A stretch of DNA of 64,000 nt, taken from NCBI GenBank assembly GCA_020137815.1, contig CM035350.1:3286001-3350000 (forward strand). Direction: 5' to 3'. Below are positions 3,655 to 50,802 of this stretch, one piece after another. Made by a program: the position numbers and the translations under genes. The notes under the pieces are model-generated. The model did no database searches and was not told the DNA's origin. It saw only the letters and a list, made by a program, of their open reading frames with translations. The stretch is from Hormiphora californensis (lineage: Eukaryota > Animalia > Ctenophora). Positions within the stretch are counted from its first letter, which is position 1. Every line of letters starts with the position of its first letter.

Positions 3655-4060
3655 ATAAATGTAAATGTAATATAATCATTTATATATACCAATTTATAGT
3701 GTAAAATAATGGAGCACGCACCAACAGCCTACGCTTGACATACTCTCTCACTTTCAAAAGTGGTACAGATACAAAACACGAGCATAACAAAACACGAACA
3801 TACAAACACGAACATAAACACGAACATACAAAACACGAACATACAAAACACGAACATATACCGAAACTTTCAATGAATAGATGATGTTTCAGGTACTTTT
3901 TGAACTCTGCAACAGAGGCTGATTCTCTTAGGAGTCGTGGTAGACTGTTCCATACGACTGGACCAGCTATAGAGATACCACGTTTAGTAACATTGTGTCG
4001 AAGCTTGAGCCTACAGTGTATTTTCTCTTCCAACAGGGTACTATCGTCGTCCGCTCTTAG
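3655..4060 (-). mobile_element. 5'-truncated L2/CR1-group LINE: ORF2 C-terminus, 3' UTR and (CATTTA)n tail
   Basis: The peptide RGISIAGPVVWNSLPRLLRESASVAEFKKYLKHHLF matches the typical L2-clade ORF2 C-terminal motif (R.FS.AGP..WNSLP..LR...S...FK..LKT.LF). A short microsatellite tail follows at about 3657-3670. Confidence 0.8.
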
Positions 4061-4557: not shown

Positions 4558-4941
4558 ATAGTGGAAGCTCTTACGGTAATTCCCACGCCCCGTGGGAAAG
4601 TTTTTGACCGTGGGAAAGTTTTCAAAGCGTGGGAAAAGAGAGATACATACAATAAATACAAAAAATAAATTATTTTTTCTTAGTTATTGTATGTATCTCT
4701 CTTTTCCCACGCTTTGAAAACTTTCCCACGGTCGAAAACTTTCCCACGGTGCGTGGGAATTACCGTAAGAGCTTCCACTATAAAGTGTGCAGCACAGATA
4801 GTGGAAGCTCTTACGGTATTCCCACGGCCGTGGGAAAAGAGAGATAGATAGAAATACTAAGAGAGAGAAATTTCTCTCTCTTAGTATTTCTATCTATCTC
4901 TCTTTTCTCACGGTCGTGGGAATACCGTAAGAGCTTCCACT
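4558..4941. mobile_element. Two adjacent palindromic MITEs of one family (TAGTGGAAGCTCTTACGGTA termini)
   Basis: 4558-4780 and 4798-4941 each end in the reverse complement TACCGTAAGAGCTTCCACTA and are almost wholly self-complementary. Confidence 0.8.
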
Positions 4942-5197
4942 AAGAAATAAAAGCTGCATTTTTGCAGAAACAAAATCTCGTAAAAAATGCGCGTTGTGTT
5001 GGCCAGCGTTAAAATCTGGGTGTTTCGTGAGTGCTGACAAACGGTTTTTAGGGTTAGGAGCCACTCTTGTTGTGTCCCTCTCCCATATTCTCCGTGTGCC
5101 AACACAACGCTATAATGGTACACCCGCACAGTCGTGTTCCTCTCATTTTCTATTATTTTTCACCTTTCTTTTTTAAGGTTTCACCTTTCTTTTTTAA

Positions 5198-6548
5198 AGG
5201 GATACTGACATATTCAAAATTTTTTGACTTTTTCAACGATCCTGGGTGTGGTAACTGGTTGGGAGATAAAAATAGGATTAGTCGAAGTGCGAAACTCTCT
5301 ACTCCCTTCGTTCTCAAGATATAGGGCCCCACCTTTTAGCACTTCGTATTGGTTTATGGTAAAGGGGGAGAGTGTATTGCAAATTACATGTAACACGAGT
5401 CGTTTATCTGTCAATATCTCAACTTCACATGCACGATTTTGACCGGATTTTTTCTGGAAGTGAGAAATGTTTTAAATTTTTAGTATTTTCTTATGATGTA
5501 TCAGAATGACCAAAAAATCAGTAAATAAACAAGTAAACATTTCAGTTTGAGGTGAACTGGAGTGCATTGTCAATTAAACCCAATTAGGTCAATTAGAGCA
5601 CTTTGCCGACTCTAAGGACTTGGAAAAGTTTGTCATGTGATTCAGCGTATCAAAATTAGTGTGTAAAGTGCCCTCAATGCGATCTTTCAGCATTCAGTTG
5701 AAAGTGCAATATATGCCAATTAGACGAATTATGCTCAATTAGGACACTTCTTCACCTCTGACGGCTTGGAAAAGTCGCTTACGTGATTCAGCGTATCAAA
5801 ATTAGTGGGGATAGTGCTCTCCACATGAATTGATAATGTTTTCATGCGATAAGTTACAGTTACGATCAATTAGACCCGATTATGCTCAATTAGGGCACTT
5901 TCTCCACCCTGAGCGCTTGCCAAAGTTGTCCACGTGTTCAACGTATCAAAATTAGTCGGTTATAGTGGTTTTGCCTTTTATACCAATTAGTTGGCTAAAT
6001 TTTTCAGTTATACTCTTCAGGATACAATATTCATTTCAGGGCTGAATAGTTAATAACTATTGACTATGTTATTGATATGGGCTAATATTAACAAATTTGT
6101 ATGTAAAATTAGAGGAAGTACAGCCAAGTTGATTGAAATTAGTTACTGAAACCATGATAATATTGTTCAAGAAGGCATACATTTCAAAAAAACAGGTCTT
6201 GCTTAGTTATAGTCTTATCTATTCATGACAAGACTAGAGACAAATGGAAATAAAAAACGGAAACTAGAAGTGATCTTAAAGTTTTTAGAAAAAATCGCGT
6301 CAAATCGCATGTGTATTAGCTGAGATAAGACATATAAACAGGCTCGTGTTTACCTGTAATCTGTAATACGGTCTCCTTCTCTTACCATAAACCAATTAGG
6401 AGGTGCTAATATTCGGGTCCCTTATCTTGAGAAGTAGAGGGAGTAGAGAGCTCGGATTCGACACAATGTATTTATTCTTTCAGATGATTTGATTGAGCAA
6501 TGTTTTACTAAAATTTGAGATGGTCGATTTGAATATGTCAGTATCCCT
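5198..6548. mobile_element. Non-autonomous DNA transposon, Kolobok-like (TTAA TSD, purine-purine terminus)
   Basis: TIR AGGGATACTGACATATTCAAA / TTTGAATATGTCAGTATCCCT, flanked by TTAA at 5194-5197 and 6549-6552. Imperfect subterminal IRs and three internal CGTATCAAAATTAGT repeats; no transposase ORF. Confidence 0.8.
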
Positions 6549-6553
6549 TTAAG

Positions 6554-6595
6554 GTTTCAAACTTTTCAACACTACTTTAAACAAATTAATTTGAG
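6554..6595 (+). other. Genomic copy of a ctenophore-type spliced-leader exon fused to a downstream 5' UTR
   Basis: GTTTCAAACTTTTCAACACTACTTTAAACAAATTAATTTGAG matches the Pleurobrachia-type SL as I recall it (not searched). It is followed by GCGGC, not by a GT donor and SL-RNA intron, and an ATG lies 33 nt downstream. Confidence 0.7.
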
Positions 6596-6628
6596 GCGGC
6601 ACCCTCCCTCAAATTTCCCGTGTAGACA

Positions 6629-7699
6629 ATGTCAAACACCAAAGTGGAGGGCATCGATAGCCCAAAAGATACTGAAACCAAGCCGGCGCCGAAAACATCC
6701 GATAAGCCGAAGGACCCGATAGTCAAGAGAGAAATGGAGGATCGAGCAGCAGCTGTAATCGTCAAACTGGTATCGTTGTCTGCCGAAACACACCCGCTCG
6801 CTCAAAAAATGCTCCTAGCCTATAAATTTGGTGCGAGTATAACAACCAATATCAGTAACCTGGGTAAACCCTCCCGTCCGGAAGCTTTGGAGGCCGCGGC
6901 TTTCCTCGGTATAATACAGGAGGCCGATCGCGATCCCTCTAGCTCGGGTGGTAAGAGACCGGCCAAAAATCGGCAAACCTTAAGCCACCGGATCATCAAG
7001 AAGATAGAAAGCCTGTTCCCGGCTCGGTGTACTGACTGCTCCGCCTTATACCAACCCGATTTTGAAGAGACACATATTCACATGCTGGTCATGTTAACCG
7101 ACACTCCCATGACTGTGAAGTTATCAGCGAGCGCGTGAGAGGCCATCGCAAAATTGGAAAGAGTGAGGAATAATGGTTTCAAATGGCTTTGCTTGGAATG
7201 TTCAGAAAAAACAAGTCTTTCACTCAGAAAGTCACTGACCCTGTACGAAATAGGACCCAACCCCCCAGAAGATCATGAAAATGATAAGAATGGTCCAGCT
7301 GGAGAATATTCACAATCCGACACCATTGACCTGTCCCAGATTGATGCCTCTCAACAAGTTAAAGATGAGGAATCAAAACAAGTGGAGAAAAAAGAGCAAC
7401 CCCCCTTTGAAAGGATCTCCAAGCCATGTAGCTTCTTCCGCAAAGGAAATTGTCGACACGGTCCAGACGGCACCAAGGAAGTGGACGGACAGACCTGTCG
7501 ATACGTACACAAAGCTCCTGTCATCCCCCCTACCCAACCACCAGCCGGAGTCACGGACCCAGTTGGCGAAACTGATTGCCAGGTTTTTGTTGAATATGGA
7601 AGATGTGAGCATGGAATAAATGGAAAAATCAGAAGAGGAACGGTCTGGCCAGGAATACATCCCAGAAGTATGCAGCACAAACATGGTTTATTAACATAA
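6629..7699 (+). mobile_element. Frameshifted, 3'-truncated LINE ORF1-like protein (PHD-like and CCCH zinc fingers)
   Basis: ORFs 6629-7138 and 7154-7699 join across frameshifts. Motifs CTDC...FKWLCLEC (PHD-like), CSFFRKGNCRHG...CRYVH and CQVFVEYGRCEHG (CCCH-like) are typical of CR1/L2-group ORF1. No ORF2 follows. Confidence 0.65.
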
Positions 7700-7817
7700 A
7701 ATATATATCCCAACGGCCAACACCCCACACAGCACACTACCCCAACACCCCACCCCCCCCCCCCCAACACAGCACACTACCCTCAATCCCTACACTAGGC
7801 CCCCACATGTCACATAC

Positions 7818-10256: not shown

Positions 10257-13200
10257 TCACTGGGAGGCTGTTTCAGCATCTCGTTGGGAAAACCTCACCC
10301 GTTTAGGCCCCACCACGCTCACTGGTCCAATGTTTTTGGGTACAAATCTTCGAACCACGGCGTTCTCGTGGCCTAACTTGAAGCCCCAATTTGACTCTTT
10401 AACCATTCCATCTGAGGGGGCAGAGAGAATGAGTAATATCAGACCTATTATACTAGCAGTATGTAGTACATTATCTGTATATTGATACCCCAGGTACCTG
10501 CATGGCTAGGTAACAACAACATACCTTCCCAGGTACCACAAAAAGCTGCCAATTCACCTATCTAACACTGAGCTGTGACTGATGTATTCTGTGAGACTAC
10601 ATTTCACCTACCTAACACTGTGACTGATGTATTCTGTGAGACTACATTTCACCTACCTAACACGGTGACTGATGTATTCTGTGAGACTACAATGGCAGGA
10701 AGTCCATTGTACGCTATGACGTCACCCGGCTGAGGGTACACCACCACATTCCAACCAGGTATGCTGGTAGCTCTATCACTCCAGTCCCCCGTGTTTTCTG
10801 GTAGTATCTATCAGGGAGAGAGAGGAGTTAGTTTGGTTACTGTACTCCATTGATACCATCACACTCAGTGGCAGGTGAGTAGAACTTCGCTCCTAATAAA
10901 AGGCTGCAATAAAAGGCTGCAGAAAAAGGCTGCAATAAAAGGCTGCAATAAAAGGCTGCAATAAAAGGCTGCAATAAAAGGCTGCAGAAAAAGGCTGCAA
11001 TAAAAGGCTGCAATAAAAGGCTGCAAGGGATCACGTATCTAACCAGACTAAAGCGGGGAATAGACCGAATCGTCCTACCCTAATAGTGTTTCGTATCACG
11101 TATCGGCTGTAGAGAGACCGAATCACCCTCCCCTAATTATAGTGATTCGTGTCACGTATCCAACTAGACCATAGGCGATAGAGAGACCGAGATAGAGAGC
11201 GAGTACGAGTGAGAACTGAGAGAGTGAAAAATCAGAATCACGGTATGGTATCACGTACCATGGTATCCTCTAATGAAAAGCGGTTACCAATTGACAATGA
11301 GACCTCATCGGTCCCGATACGTGATTCTCTACCGCTATGTATTCTCCATTAGTCTTTCCGTATCGATCAACGATTCAGTAGAGGTAGTCAGTAACTACTG
11401 AGAGTGTTGGTTAATTAAATGAAAGGTGGTTACCTATAATTTCACCTAATCGGTGCCAATACGTGATTACTGATTTTCTACCGATATTCGCCAATAGTCT
11501 TTATGTACACAATTCAGTAGAGCGGAATCACACATAATACTATGATAGGTGAACCAAGTGGTTGGGTGGTTCACCTGTCATTGTGCTACACGCTCAATCA
11601 ATGGATCTATCGTACCGGTAGGTAGCTACCTCATTAGACCAACACTCTCAGTAGTTACTGACTACCTCTACTGAATCGTGGATCGATACGGAAAGACTAA
11701 TGGAGAATACATAGCGGTAGAGAATCACGTATCGGGACCGATGAGGTCTCATTGTCAATTGGTAACCGCCTTTCATTAGAGGATACCATGGTACGTGATA
11801 CCATACCGTGATTCTGATTTTTCACTCTCTCAGTTCTCATTCGTACTCGCTCTCTATCTCGGTCTCTATCGCATATGGTCTAGTTGGATACGTGACACGA
11901 ATCACTATAATTAGGGGATGGTGATTCGGTCTCTCTACAGCCGATACGTGATACGAAACACTATTAGGGTAGGACGATTCGGTCTATCCCCCGCTTTAGT
12001 CTGGTTGGATACGTGATCCCTTGCAGCCTTTTATTGCAGCCTTTTATTGCAGCCTTTTATTGCAGCCTTTTATTGCAGCCTTTTATTGCAGCCTTTTATT
12101 GCAGCCTTTTATTGCAGCCTTTTATTGCAGCCTTTTATTGCAGCCTTTTTCTGCAGCCTTTTATTGCAGCCTTTTATTAGGAGCGAAGTTCTACTCACCT
12201 GCCAGAGGGGTTTAGCAGCTTTAGTCAAGGGAAACATAGGGGAATGTGACATGCGGTGTACAAATATTGAACAATGATGGGTTTGTGCCGGTTTTGTTGT
12301 CGGTAAGGTAATAAACAAAGCTCTTCTTGATCTATTGAACCCTCACGAGGGCGGTGTGAGCCATACAAAGCCCTAATCCCCGACACACCACCTAGTATAA
12401 TACAGCTATAACCAAATAGCTGCAGCTGCACTCATGAGTTGACCGATCTGCACTGTATTTATGGGAGATTGAGTGAGCACACCCACACAAAGCTGGCTAG
12501 CAAAGGAACAACAATATAAAGGCCTCTAATCACTGAGCTGTATGTGTTTGTAATCCTTGTTTAGGGAGAAGCTGCTGTTTGCTTTTAAAATAATGTGGCC
12601 TAATCAGTGGCCTATTTTCATCCAGAGTCAGGACGAGATTGCTTTCTGATCGTCTCGAGGCATTACAAAGTTTTCATAAAATTTCTGCTTTCCCCTTGAT
12701 CATCCAGGCTAAAATATACTCACATCATTGATGATTCTCCTTGGAACGTACGCACCGGCACTGAGACACACCTCTCCTACAAATGTATTGTGTTTAGCCT
12801 CCCCTGCACCTGGACCCTTCTTGATATCGGCAGAAAAGTCCTTGGACCCGACCTGCAGGGAGAATATCGGTTGAGAAGTCCTTGGACCCGACCTGCAGGG
12901 AGAATATCGGTTGAAAATCCGGTTAGATTCCCCTGTTTGATTTATTTTAGGGAGCTGTTTTGTTAAACTGCCTGGGTTAACTAGAGCTGTAATTGGCATA
13001 GGCTGTGGTGTAAAAAAGGTCAACTAAATTGAATATTGTATAGGGAGCTGTTTTGTTAAACTGCTTGGGTCAACTAGAGCTGTAATTGGCATAGGCAGTG
13101 GTGTAAAAAAGGTCATCTAAATTGAATGTATAGGGAGCTGTTTTGTTAAACTAGAGCTGTGAGTCGTCTCCCCCATGATATATGAGAGAGACTGACAGTG

Positions 13201-16119: not shown

Positions 16120-17058
16120 TATAGCACTATAGTACTGGACGAACTACCTTACCAATGCTTTATGCCACCCGTTTTTACATTTATCCACCGCTCTTTCTTG
16201 GTTGATAATCCGCCGCTCTCTTTTTTACATTTCACACTTTACTTCCCGTTCGAAGTTCGAACCATTTTCTATGATAACGCCTCCAGCCCGCCCGTACATG
16301 CTGCATACTTTAGTGGTATATTGCTTGTCAGTGGTATCAGCCTCCCTTTCAGCTGAACGTGGACGATTTTTGTAGACAGCCGTCCCTCTCTCTCCCTCTC
16401 TCTTTCTCTCCTCCATCCTTCTTCTCTATCTCCCCCTTCTCACATGTCGTCTTTGGAAATTGTCATTAGCACGTATATACAATATAACCAGGGCGGTGGT
16501 CCACTACAGGCCTATATTCATTACTATATGGAGCTAGACCGAGCTGTAATTGGAGGGCAACCCCTGCTGTTAATCTCTCTCACACTTCCTCCAGTCCATC
16601 TCTCCCCCAAACCGCAATCCGTCACAACTATAGTTCCTCCTTCCTCCTAATAATAATATGGACTGGGAGCTGCTGTTAGAGCCTCATTGTGTGCATATAT
16701 ATTTTATATTGCTAGTATTATATGTGTGCCCTATCCAGTAACGCTCCACTGATGCATAGCTCTCTGTTTGTGAGATGAAGAACCCAAATCTTAGCTATTA
16801 TAGAGTTCGACTTGATCGCTTTGTTCGACCCTCTCTCTCTCCGCGATCATCTTGGCTCTCTCTCCGTGTCCCGAAACTAGAAAAATTTGAACAAAACAAT
16901 TAGTTTAACTGGTGTGCCACTGAAACCGAGTTGCTTCTAAAAGATCTAGATCCTATCTTATCTGTTGTTCAACTTCATACTTTTAGTATTTTGTCTAATG
17001 TAGAACGGGCCTCCGACTCTGATCAAGTGAATTGTTCCTTTCCCCCTAAGCTCACCTA

Positions 17059-36911
<19,853 letters not shown>

Positions 36912-44837: not shown

Positions 44838-46026
44838 ATGTAATGTAATGTAATGTAATATATGCATTTAATATACCACTTTCTAGTGTAAATAATACGG
44901 TGTCCGTATTGATAGCCAACGCTATACGAACACACACACTTCCTAAAGTGGTTATAAGACCAAAAAACACGAACGTTCTACGTAAACATACGAAACGAGT
45001 TAGTAACCCATTTTAATGATCCCGTTTTGAATGTAATATTTCCCATTTGGATCTTCCAGTCTAAGCCTCTTTACGGTTTCTACTAGTTGTTTTCGTTCCT
45101 TTTGTTGAACAGGAGTCAGATCCGGTGAGAAAAATACAGATGAAAAGTTTTCCGATTGTTTCAAGAGTTTTGCTTTCCTAAGAAGTGCAAACAGAGATTC
45201 TCTGCTCTCCAGAGAGATAACCAGTGGTCTCGTTTTGGAACTTGAATCCAGTTTTTGGCCGACTCGTTTCATTGATTTAGTAACAGGTTTCTCATTTAAC
45301 TCTTCGAATAGTTCTTTCACTGAGATTGAATCAACTCGGGTCGTAGACTCAGGTAAACCAAACACCACGAGGTTTTTAGCTCTATCAGGCTCCACCACTG
45401 CATTGCTAGACGCTGAGCTCCGAGGGGTTGCTGCATTTTTCACTACCTTAGGGGTGATCACAGAGCAGTTTTGACTCAAAACGGTAGAATATGCTTTCAT
45501 TTTAGCAACAGAACTGGACGTAGACTCGAGATGGCGGTCTTGTAGAGCGATAATCTTCTTCTGTAGGTCAATTACAGAGATCCGATGCTTATCAAGTTCC
45601 TCCTTGCATTTCTGCATGCGCAGTTCAGCTTCTTTCACTTTACAATCCATGACATGCTGAGAATTCATATACCGATTTACAACACGTATACTGCTAACAA
45701 TAGTCCTGCTACTCAGATTAATAACCTCCTCAATGCTACAGTTTTTGAACGCATTCCTTAACATTCTATCATGATCGTCGATTTGGGCGTCACTGCTAGT
45801 GTACCTCTTGATTTTAGCATGATCAATGTCCCAATCTTGAGGGTTGGGATTAGCTTCCATTTCTTTCCGGCAGTCAGGGTTGAAGATCATTGAAAGATGA
45901 AGAGCCCATGTTGCGATTGAGTCATCATTTATCATAGGGCTATCACCCTTCTCCTCTGTCGTTGTCATTTCTACACCTAGAGGCCGAGCCTCAATAAATA
46001 GTTTTACGTTGTAGTTGATGAAAGTT
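44838..46026 (-). mobile_element. ORF1-only non-autonomous non-LTR element: SL-like 5' end, intact ORF1, L2-like 3' UTR and (CATTA)n tail
   Basis: SL-like AACTTTCATCAACTACAACGTAAAACTATTTATTGAG at 46026-45990, then ORF1. The 3' UTR at 44999-44860 aligns with the LINE 3' end at 3660-3800, and a (TAATG)n tail is at 44838-44858. Confidence 0.75.
45000..45968 (-). CDS. L2/CR1-type ORF1 protein (coiled coil + RRM-like + C-terminal domain), 322 aa from the ATG after the SL-like segment
   Basis: Intact ORF (an in-frame upstream ATG is at 46040). Motifs RAKNLVVFGLPE, KRVG...TRPLVI and LRKAKLLK...VFFSPDLTPVQQKERKQL are characteristic of CR1/L2 ORF1. Confidence 0.8.
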   Translation of the reverse strand: MTTTEEKGDSPMINDDSIATWALHLSMIFNPDCRKEMEANPNPQDWDIDHAKIKRYTSSDAQIDDHDRMLRNAFKNCSIEEVINLSSRTIVSSIRVVNRYMNSQHVMDCKVKEAELRMQKCKEELDKHRISVIDLQKKIIALQDRHLESTSSSVAKMKAYSTVLSQNCSVITPKVVKNAATPRSSASSNAVVEPDRAKNLVVFGLPESTTRVDSISVKELFEELNEKPVTKSMKRVGQKLDSSSKTRPLVISLESRESLFALLRKAKLLKQSENFSSVFFSPDLTPVQQKERKQLVETVKRLRLEDPNGKYYIQNGIIKMGY

Positions 46027-48260: not shown

Positions 48261-49454
48261 ATGACTGATAGCGAAGCAGAGAAAGAGGTCGAAAACCTAA
48301 TTTCAGTATATAAAGAAGCATGTAAGAAAGTCGAAAAACCTCCCATCAACAAATTTGTGGAGTTTCTCAACCTTGTCGACAAGGAAAATGAGCCTTCAAT
48401 TGATGGATATAACATTGACCTCAGTGGGAATCTTCCAGAGTTCAAATACAACCGGCTCGATCATAACGATGCTATCGCAATTGCTAGGGAGCTCAGCGAG
48501 GACTTTATCATTTCAGATCTGAACCTTTCCTTCAACAACATTGAAAACACTGGTGCCATTGCCCTCGGAAAGTCTCTCCAGGACAATAAGTTCCTTGAAT
48601 CACTGGACCTTTCCATGTGTGACATTGATGTCAAAGGAGTTGAGGCAATCTGCACTGGCCTACAAATGAATGACAACCTGAAACGGTTGAATCTCAAGGG
48701 GAACAAGTTTGGGAGGCAGGGTGGCATTCTTCTCTCTGCAACTCTTCAGGTTAACTCCACCCTCCGTGATTTGAACATTGCAGACACAGACCAGACAAAC
48801 GAGAGTCTTATTGCCCTGACAACGGTCCTTCATCATAACACCACTATCAAAAAGCTGGATGTGAGCAATCCCCTACTTGTGAGCGAGCAAGAGGAAACCA
48901 CTGTCCACTTTTCCAAAATGCTCAAAGTCAACTATGGGCTGACTGAGTTGAGGCTCTGCAAACACGGAATCATGGACTTTGGAGCTAGTCAGCTGGCGGA
49001 TGCCCTTTGCGACAACAACTCTCTCCTTTTCCTTGATTTAGGATGCAATAAGATCAGTGAGGATGGAGCCAGAGCGCTGGCCGGGCTCATCCGACAAAAC
49101 ACTCCCCTGAAAAAGTTATCTCTGACCTCCAACAGGATCGGTGACAATGGAGTTGTAGTGATCAGTGAGGCCGTCGCTACTAACAACTGTAATCTCACCA
49201 CCCTCATGGTAAACAATAATGGTATCACGGAGAAGGGTCTGTGTGCTGTAGCTGCGGCCCTTCGTCTCAACATCACCCTCACCAATGTCTACATCTGGGG
49301 CAATGAGCTGAGGAACACAGCGTGCGATGCTTTTGAGCGGCTGATGGATGGAAACAAACCCCGGATTCTACCTCATAACACGGATATTGAGCCATACAAA
49401 GTAGATGGAGTTACCTACCTGTCCGAGGCTGGACACTACCTATTCTCTCATTGA
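48261..49454 (+). CDS. LRRC34: Leucine-rich repeat-containing protein 34 (RI-like LRRs), copy 1, intronless, 397 aa
   Basis: 28-aa RI-like LRRs with LRRC34-type motifs PLLVSEQEETTVHFSKML, LCKHGI, LDLGCNKI, VYIWGN and NTDIEPYKVDGVTYLSE. Confidence 0.88.
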   Translation: MTDSEAEKEVENLISVYKEACKKVEKPPINKFVEFLNLVDKENEPSIDGYNIDLSGNLPEFKYNRLDHNDAIAIARELSEDFIISDLNLSFNNIENTGAIALGKSLQDNKFLESLDLSMCDIDVKGVEAICTGLQMNDNLKRLNLKGNKFGRQGGILLSATLQVNSTLRDLNIADTDQTNESLIALTTVLHHNTTIKKLDVSNPLLVSEQEETTVHFSKMLKVNYGLTELRLCKHGIMDFGASQLADALCDNNSLLFLDLGCNKISEDGARALAGLIRQNTPLKKLSLTSNRIGDNGVVVISEAVATNNCNLTTLMVNNNGITEKGLCAVAAALRLNITLTNVYIWGNELRNTACDAFERLMDGNKPRILPHNTDIEPYKVDGVTYLSEAGHYLFSH

Positions 49455-49617: not shown

Positions 49618-50802
49618 ATGGACCCGCTCGAAAACACTGAAAGTCCAGAATGCCAGCGGCTTAAAAAGTTATATTTCGATGCCTGTGAGGAGCATGGATG
49701 TTTCCATCTCGATCCCCTCGTTGACATTCTGGAAGGACACAGCCCTCATGGAACACGTCTTATCCTCCGGGGAAACATGAAAATGTTCAGAAAGAAGGCC
49801 CTCACGGACTCTGATTTCCTTGCCATGGCTATGGTCCTCAGAACGGACACTTTTATAACTCGTCTAGACCTCTCCTACAACTCAATCAGCGATGAAGTTT
49901 GTGTAGGTCTGGGGGAGGCAATTGCAAAGAACAAAACCCTCAAACAGCTCAACCTTTCGATGTGCGATCTAAGCGTTGATGGTTGTTTTGCGATTTGTAA
50001 GGGCCTGGAATTCAATTATGCCATCACCCACGTCAACATGTCGGGCAACAGTTTCGGTCGGGATGGCTCTGTGGAGCTGGCTGCCACCCTCCAACTAAAC
50101 AACACCATAACCCACCTCTACCTATCATCCACCCACCAAACCGCCCAGAGCGTTATTCCTGTGTGTACTGTGGTTAGCTGTAATGGTACGGGAATCCAAC
50201 ATTTAGATCTCTCCCGGACCATCCCTCCCTCAGACCCTGAGGTGCTGGGCGAGCATGTCAACAGGCTGCTAGTCCTCTGCAACACTCTCACTTCCCTTCG
50301 GCTGGCTAAGTGCGATCTGACTGATGTTTGTGTGAAGATTATCGCACCTGCACTTGTACAAAATGTAACCCTGACCTCTCTTGACCTGTCCTGTAACAAA
50401 ATCTCCAGCGACGGCGCCAAGACTCTAGCTGAGGTGCTGCGGGCGAACCAAACCCTACTGGAACTAAAGATGTGTTCTAACCGTATAGAGGACGAGGGTA
50501 CAGTGGCACTGGGTCTGGTACTTTCTAGTGGGAATGATACCCTGAAAAAGCTGTGGATAACAAACAATTCGGTGACGGGCCGAGGTTTGTCTTCCCTGGC
50601 TAACGCCCTTCAATTCAACATGACCCTATCCCACGTGTACATTTGGGGTAATGCTCTCGACAATATGGCCTGTAATGCCTTCTCTCATCTTCTTATGGGA
50701 GAGACACCTAGATTGAGGAGTTCAAATGTGGACATAAAACCATATGTGGTGGACGGGGTTAACTATCTGGCGGAACAGGGTCGACATGGATTCTCCCATT
50801 AG
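49618..50802 (+). CDS. LRRC34: LRRC34 paralog, copy 2, intronless, 394 aa
   Basis: Colinear with copy 1 (LNLSMCDL, LDLSCNKISSDGA, HVYIWGN, VDIKPYVVDGVNYLAE, ends FSH). First ATG at 49618. Confidence 0.85.
   Translation: MDPLENTESPECQRLKKLYFDACEEHGCFHLDPLVDILEGHSPHGTRLILRGNMKMFRKKALTDSDFLAMAMVLRTDTFITRLDLSYNSISDEVCVGLGEAIAKNKTLKQLNLSMCDLSVDGCFAICKGLEFNYAITHVNMSGNSFGRDGSVELAATLQLNNTITHLYLSSTHQTAQSVIPVCTVVSCNGTGIQHLDLSRTIPPSDPEVLGEHVNRLLVLCNTLTSLRLAKCDLTDVCVKIIAPALVQNVTLTSLDLSCNKISSDGAKTLAEVLRANQTLLELKMCSNRIEDEGTVALGLVLSSGNDTLKKLWITNNSVTGRGLSSLANALQFNMTLSHVYIWGNALDNMACNAFSHLLMGETPRLRSSNVDIKPYVVDGVNYLAEQGRHGFSH

Follow-up and report, generated by a model that had tools for sequence, protein, structure and literature searches.

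Transposon RNAs that become trans-spliced to a spliced leader (SL) have been described in Schistosoma and Hydra (PMC5832876, PMC12220107). In the passages concerned, Boroni 2018 lists six genomic SL copies of Schistosoma mansoni that are joined to transposable elements and suggests either elements that were trans-spliced and retro-transcribed or chimeric assembly (PMC5832876), while in Hydra the SL is present on about 30% of the Iso-Seq reads from transposons (PMC12220107). These are remarks made in passing; the Hydra passage deals with RNA only, and chimeric assembly is left possible in Schistosoma. The ctenophore elements described here differ from both, inasmuch as entire families, in several LINE lineages, regularly start with the SL at their 5' end, with independent support from contigs.

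A second comparison is provided by dinoflagellates, in which a genomic copy of the DinoSL heads retrogenes that arose by retroposition of formerly trans-spliced RNA (PMC5585692, PMC12014239). The passages on this SL relic propose that it serves as a promoter or as a new acceptor (PMC5585692, PMC12014239), and the AG inside the relics is discussed as an acceptor in one of them (PMC5585692). The cargo of these retrogenes is a cellular gene and their relics are truncated and stacked, whereas the cargo in ctenophores is the LINE itself, and the leader, almost complete in length, is unstacked in all 10 heads.

NeSL, CRE, SLACS and CZAR encode a restriction-like endonuclease and insert within SL gene arrays. 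These non-LTR elements likewise adjoin an SL exon, as described in PMC4640811. The ctenophore elements, in contrast, are of the APE type and occupy dispersed sites with flanks that contain neither an SL promoter nor an SL intron. R2 carries a 5' HDV-like ribozyme. L1Tc is described as carrying one as well, and the likeness of both to the ctenophore elements is a functional analogy only, in that an exact element 5' end is cut from a longer co-transcript. Unlike the ribozymes, the processing that we propose for ctenophores would be carried out by the host spliceosome and would add a cap.

The protein-coding part of the ctenophore elements resembles CR1 and L2 LINEs, lineages for which PHD-bearing ORF1s are typical (Metcalfe and Casane 2014, PMC4120745). 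The PHD finger in ORF1 is shared; an APE-type ORF2 in a relative and tandem tails in relatives, apparently without target duplications, may be further common features. Two features differ: CCCH fingers have 0 occurrences in PMC4120745, and the 5' end of the ctenophore elements is the SL of the host.

A spliced-leader copy heads a LINE remnant

The window (the whole 64-kb stretch of DNA that was analysed) contains a 42-mer at 6554–6595 on the forward strand, which ends AATTTGAG and is followed by GCGG in place of a GT donor. A 33-nt 5' UTR (6596–6628, +) separates the 42-mer from an ATG at 6629. This arrangement had been described in an earlier, sequence-only reading of the locus, and its coordinates are confirmed at 6554–6629. 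The 42-mer is present once in the window, where the second-best 42-nt match has 15 mismatches; with a chance expectation of ~1e-19, coincidence cannot account for it. The SL of Hormiphora californensis is printed with 44 nt (Schultz et al. 2021, PMC8527503), and the 42-mer matches all of it except the first two. The SL gene at locus L010 carries the same 42 nt, as do mRNAs L001, L005 and L011 at their heads. By its leader, the window probably derives from a pleurobrachiid ctenophore. The earlier identification of the 42-mer as a ctenophore SL therefore holds, as the sequence is found in the published leader, in an SL gene and at the heads of four cellular mRNAs. The description of the copy as a full SL exon needs a small correction. 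The sequence common to L010, L005 and L011 is 43 nt long, of which the window copy has 42, only the first base being missing. In H. californensis, the leader is present on 56% of Iso-Seq reads and in 718 genomic copies, and 491 copies of the Mnemiopsis motif were counted in Mnemiopsis (Schultz et al. 2021, PMC8527503); the passage that reports these figures counts genomic leader copies without classifying them.

We considered whether the locus is an SL RNA gene and rejected this because GCGG replaces the GT donor and the sequence upstream of the SL matches the flank of the SL gene at 8/20 positions. In the left target flank (5158–5197, +; direct repeat D11), a pyrimidine-rich unit of 21 nt occurs twice; it ends in AG and is in register with the SL start, and the window has no further copy of it. 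The first 6–7 nt of the SL also match this tandem unit; part of the SL head may well represent microhomology at the junction.

The ATG opens a LINE ORF1 remnant (6629–7665, +) that covers ~345 of ~514 amino acids, is interrupted by a stop codon and by a stretch out of frame, and is cut at its 3' side. Translated with X at the stop, the frame is 62–63% identical to two proteins of 514–515 amino acids (P0002 and P0003), homologues in which a PHD finger is accompanied by three fingers of the CCCH type. The PHD finger of the window copy (C4HC3; 7028–7201, +), recognised in alignment A1 and in a three-frame translation, has its middle four ligands out of frame. The internal stop, TGA, lies at 7136–7138, and the frame is lost at ~7070–7150, which removes these four ligands. 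The C4HC3 pattern is present in P0002–P0004 and in 132 of 149 relatives, and it is broken in the window copy and missing from P0001. CCCH-type zinc fingers follow at 7427–7663 (+), the first complete and the second damaged in the alignment; the Pfam zf-CCCH match falls below the cut-off in P0001 (E 0.02) and above it in P0004. Four relatives (P0044, P0053, P0061 and P0077) and others have an extra N-terminal domain ahead of the PHD and CCCH fingers, which by eye resembles a Tudor or chromo-barrel domain.

Similarity to the 514–515-amino-acid homologues stops at about 7663–7666, which makes the stop at 7699 a chance stop. Depth in the DNA runs drops to the level of unique sequence in the bin 7622–7735. 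Elsewhere in the 64-kb window, neither the last ~170 amino acids of ORF1 nor ORF2 was found; the sole ORF2 trace is an unrelated C-terminal scrap near 3850–4020. The window copy is a dead, truncated fossil LINE. The earlier reading had extended ORF1 to 7699 and regarded the element as able to cycle, neither of which survives the broken frame and the end of homology at ~7665.

The proposal that the window ORF is a LINE ORF1, also made in that reading, is supported by the homologue in L009, an ORF1 at 25–29% identity that precedes an ORF for an APE endonuclease; the L009 contig ends before any RT. The ORF1 protein family comprises 1995 clusters at E ≤ 0.001, and among the matches listed most are 400–530 amino acids long. 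In Pfam, no LINE ORF1 family matches the window ORF. A fused ORF1-ORF2 protein was absent from the longer proteins searched, which is weak evidence, and a translated leader at the N-terminus was found in 0/149 ORF1 relatives. We tentatively assign the family to the CR1/L2 clade on the basis of its ORF1 type and motifs.

The SL head is a trait of the whole family

Short-read contigs of four DNA runs were aligned to 6572–6800, yielding 73 contigs; overall, 5 of the 13 listed runs were used. In run X1, a 70-nt contig spans 6575–6644 with zero differences at a depth of 659, compared with 37–53 for contigs of the unique flank. The depth over the SL-UTR junction is thus 12–18 times that of the unique flank in X1; contig depth is not copy number, but the value of 659 is most simply read as a junction present in many copies. 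The same contig, without differences in the SL or the UTR, is present in runs X5 and X7, the latter labelled as another species, and in X7 it continues into an ORF1 of the P0002 type. Sequence other than the SL ahead of the UTR (a loose end before 6596) was found in 0/73 contigs, which have 17 loose ends in total, bearing in mind that contigs lose rare variants and that a single outron-bearing source copy could escape. One X7 contig is cut within the SL (before 6577), which is how a reverse transcript that ended early would look. Diverged subfamilies, with 9–10 differences in 66–79 nt of the UTR region, are likewise headed by the SL; none of the 29 listed places at which contigs differ lies within 6572–6595. 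The SL head is therefore a trait of the whole family of the window element. Run X13, which is labelled as RNA, joins the SL to unrelated sequences. This run, presumed to be RNA, covers the SL and has no depth over 6710–7735, which speaks neither way on expression.

These contigs bear on the suggestion that the locus is a chimera of assembly, or that a cellular zinc-finger mRNA gave rise to it as a single processed copy. The lack of a Pfam LINE ORF1 match and of an ORF2 behind the frame in the window would suit such an origin, and chimeric assembly was raised for similar Schistosoma cases in the passage by Boroni 2018 (PMC5832876). The junction, however, is found in short-read contigs of three runs, the family is multi-copy with its 1995 clusters at E ≤ 0.001, and one member lies directly upstream of an APE ORF, all of which make a one-off copy or a chimera barely credible. 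A retrogene of a cellular gene with a relict SL was rejected on similar grounds, the cargo here being a multi-copy LINE ORF1.

Several LINE families begin with the host SL

An exact scan of metagenome contigs (≥1 kb) with a 38-nt SL core returned 15 matches at 14 loci. The scan favours exact, long leaders, and its proportions are not genome-wide. Nine matches are retroelement heads, four are heads of cellular mRNAs and two are true SL genes. The mRNA heads (L001, L005, L006 and L011) have the SL at the very start of the contig with an ordinary ORF behind it; judging by the translations, these include a probable cathepsin-like and a probable proteasome-like ORF. No cellular retrocopy with genomic flank was present among the 15 matches. 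Locus L010, which by its sequence is an SL RNA gene, accounts for the two true genes: at L010:263–1513, a 778-bp unit that pairs an SL RNA gene with a 5S rRNA gene (Rfam RF00001) is repeated in tandem, and each of the two SL copies is followed by GTAAG and lies beside a 5S rRNA gene. Viral contigs contained no match to the SL, to the window ORF1 or to the head of the second element described below.

Six SL-headed retroelements contain an ORF1 and an APE ORF2, and three contain an ORF1-like frame only. In the first group, L002, L003, L004, L007 and L014 combine a zinc-knuckle ORF1 with an APE ORF2, and L009 combines a PHD/CCCH ORF1 with an APE ORF. The APE domain (PF03372) was detected in L004 and L009, and RT is confirmed in L004, which thus has APE plus RT; its ORF1 is of another type than that of the window element. 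The ORF2 of L004 also contains, at ~residues 430–550 between endonuclease and RT, an in-frame 12-amino-acid tandem repeat of about nine copies that leaves the frame unbroken. The second group consists of L008, L012 and L013, with short tandem tails in L008 and L013. Searches of Pfam and PDB gave no name for the ORF1-like proteins of these three or of the second element; we take them to be putative LINE ORF1s from a motif, the SL head and the tandem tails. A small GC-rich inverted motif is common to L008, L012 and L013, just ahead of the likely ATG. The ORF1 groups of the SL-headed elements have no mutual BLAST matches and represent at least three unrelated types. All SL-headed elements, whatever their ORF1 group, share the sequence of the SL gene. 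Several unrelated comb-jelly LINE families begin with the host SL at dispersed sites. Sister copies and other families thus carry the SL at the start, as do the 5' ends of four mRNAs; the lack of either would, by the sequence-only reading, have spoken against its proposal.

The SL heads are 38–43 of 43 nt long (at least 41 nt in 8/10, 42–43 nt in 5/10), the +1 base of the SL is absent in 9/10 copies, and stacked leaders occur in 0/10 heads. UTRs are just 33–49 nt long in 5/10 elements, and five L2-like elements have UTRs of 145–188 nt with shared motifs that could be promoters. Short tandem tails are present in L004, L007, L008, L013 and the second element; the 3' end of the window copy is lost. 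L013 has no target duplication of at least 6 nt, and L004 and L007 have just 10 nt of upstream flank.

The flanks of the SL-headed elements resemble neither one another nor those of the SL gene. Where the flank is long enough for comparison, in six copies, the upstream sequence matches the SL gene at 1–8/20 positions, as against 20/20 for the gene itself, and the 3' flanks of L004, L007 and L013 differ from the SL intron. These features would be hard to reconcile with site-specific insertion behind the exon of an SL RNA gene in the style of NeSL, CRE, SLACS and CZAR, in which case the leader would be target DNA. Such elements do exist (PMC4640811), and L007 has a GT just past its SL, but this GT belongs to the family UTR shifted by 1 nt, and the endonuclease is of the APE type and not restriction-like. 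We consider site-specific insertion highly improbable, and NeSL/SLACS-type targeting of SL genes is excluded by the upstream flanks, the 3' flanks and the APE domain.

A second, ORF1-only retroposon and its surroundings

The window contains a second retroposon, complete in itself, on the reverse strand (46026–44838). Its 37-nt head (45990–46026, −) is leader-like and ends in TTGAG, being otherwise diverged from the SL; the same head is found in translation in protein P0005, where it is extended by residues like those of a translated SL start. Prokaryote genomes contained no match to this head. The body (44838–45989, −) consists of a 21-nt UTR, an open ORF1-like frame of 322 amino acids (45968–45000), a 3' UTR and a pentanucleotide tandem tail (44859–44838). 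The frame is 36% identical to the ORF of L013 and 82% identical to P0005. Together with L008 and L013, this element suggests a class of non-autonomous retroposons composed of leader, ORF1 and tail. One abundant repeat occurs twice in this context: upstream of the second element (46400–46300, −), and in L013 (L013:400–461), where it directly precedes the SL. In the run contigs, other SL copies are joined to the window repeat at 5000–5060, for which abundance and target preference are both possible reasons.

A non-coding, putatively Kolobok/T2-like DNA transposon of 1.35 kb (5194–6552, no strand assigned) ends 1 nt upstream of the window SL. It is flanked on both sides by TTAA and has terminal inverted repeats, with a perfect 25-nt inverted repeat (5194–5218 and 6528–6552), subterminal arms that are 79% alike and three internal repeats of ~150 nt; its depth is that of a multi-copy sequence in three DNA runs. 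Several long palindromes or foldback repeats that end in tandem arrays are located at 10880–12200 and 1–1000 (by eye) and at 4558–4942 (computed). A multi-exon gene resembling calcium-channel alpha2-delta (~17050–36911, +), with matches to VWA_N, Cache and VGCC_alpha2, seemingly starts at ~17060, as judged by eye, downstream of the SL-LINE copy, which gives no sign that this copy is placed in an intron of the host. Two single-ORF leucine-rich-repeat genes (48261–49454 and 49618–50802, +) lie in tandem 163 nt apart and form a candidate operon resolved by trans-splicing. None of the Rfam families passes its threshold anywhere in the window, and no ribozyme was thus recognised.

Discussion

The SL-headed copies were, with high probability, reverse-transcribed from SL trans-spliced RNA. 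This origin, which the sequence-only reading had put forward, is strongly supported by the identity of the SL, by the family-wide head and by the recurrence of the head in unrelated families. The evidence also has a weak side: no ORF2 was found for the window family, and the nearest relative with both ORF1 and APE is only 25–29% identical.

How the leader is maintained from one cycle to the next is a separate matter. In the model we propose, a host promoter or any transcription upstream would yield a read-through transcript of a genomic copy. The spliceosome would then take the AG that ends the retained A/T-rich SL as a trans-splice acceptor, so that the upstream flank and the old leader would be exchanged for a new, capped SL and the same junction would be restored. 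ORF1p and ORF2p would be made and the RNA inserted by target-primed reverse transcription, as is established for LINEs. Finally, the RT would halt 0–5 nt before the cap, presumably on account of the cap itself; the product, a leader of 38–43 nt joined to unrelated DNA, is what is observed. The range of head lengths fits an RT that stops at a capped SL. In addition, the absence of stacked leaders in 10/10 heads implies that acceptors upstream of the SL are not the rule.

The gain of a fresh leader in each cycle through trans-splicing at the AG of the retained SL, which the sequence-only reading had also suggested, is the explanation we favour, although we give it only about even odds. In its favour, the SL equals the current sequence of the SL gene in unrelated families while the UTRs drift, and near-full heads persist though the first base is usually lost. 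On the other side, the cross-family identity of the SL is partly built into the exact 38-mer search. Furthermore, the window SL ends in GAG and is a candidate weak acceptor. General splicing rules, which are not derived from ctenophores, disfavour a G at position −3 of the acceptor. L008, L009 and L013 retain TTTYAG in the first 6 nt past the SL, and use of this AG would delete the hexamer; hence either the choice of the first AG dominates or re-splicing does not occur.

The retained TTTYAG fits a different history, in which the SL came from trans-spliced RNA on one or a few occasions and has since been passed on within the element, where it would serve as an internal promoter or initiation element, with no renewed trans-splicing. 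The head of the second element, which is not the SL and yet is kept between copies, also fits an inherited head unless it is itself a second host SL. Hannon in 1990 is said to have found that the nematode SL RNA gene requires internal elements for initiation, which counts for inheritance, and SL relics have been proposed as promoters of dinoflagellate retrogenes (PMC5585692). However, the leader equals the present SL gene across unrelated ORF1s while the neighbouring UTRs diverge. Moreover, the +1 base is missing in 9/10 copies and yet 8/10 retain at least 41 nt; direct copying, cycle after cycle, would be expected to leave the first bases scrambled. Because the +1 base is usually lost, an initiator would miss the base it needs, and UTRs of 33–49 nt in 5/10 elements leave little room for a promoter. 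We regard inheritance without renewal as doubtful, though, as the main rival, it deserves to be taken seriously.

It is also conceivable that rare source copies carry an outron and a normal acceptor, perhaps with a promoter of their own, and that SL-headed copies are mostly dead ends. The GAG end, which would never be reused, and the TTTYAG remnants would then be explained, and a lone source could be missed when contigs drop rare variants. Yet 0/73 contigs of the four runs have an alternative upstream sequence, and the contig at 6575–6644 is unbroken over the junction. Lineages at 37% protein divergence would, in addition, need new sources, which would have to arise from the same SL-headed RNA. 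Maintenance by such sources is, in our view, unlikely.

Should the renewal of the leader by trans-splicing hold, several comb-jelly LINE lineages and their ORF1-only dependants gave up internal promoters, and the AG at the end of the SL acts as a self-renewing trans-splice acceptor that turns read-through transcripts into exact, capped, full-length RNA. We put this forward tentatively, as a possibility somewhat short of even. Among the open-access papers listed in our searches, none describes ctenophore LINE families headed by the SL or a cycle of repeated trans-splicing. The ctenophore elements pair LINE proteins of an ordinary kind with a 5' end that is unusual and recurrent, and a promoter-free cycle is a plausible prediction for them. 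Iso-Seq data and assemblies that already exist would suffice to test the model, since variants of the SL reveal if a leader originated from SL RNA or from element DNA.

How a non-LTR element restores its 5' end and its promoter is a central question, to which internal promoters and self-cleaving ribozymes are the known answers. The host SL as a standard LINE 5' end points to a third answer, which operates via the host spliceosome. It would account for the hundreds of donor-less, unclassified SL copies in ctenophore genomes and, if true, many of the 718 Hormiphora and 491 Mnemiopsis leader copies would be the 5' ends of full-length LINEs, for which the SL head would serve as an exact tag of full-length insertions. 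If true, it may also represent a general fate of LINEs in eukaryotes that practise trans-splicing.
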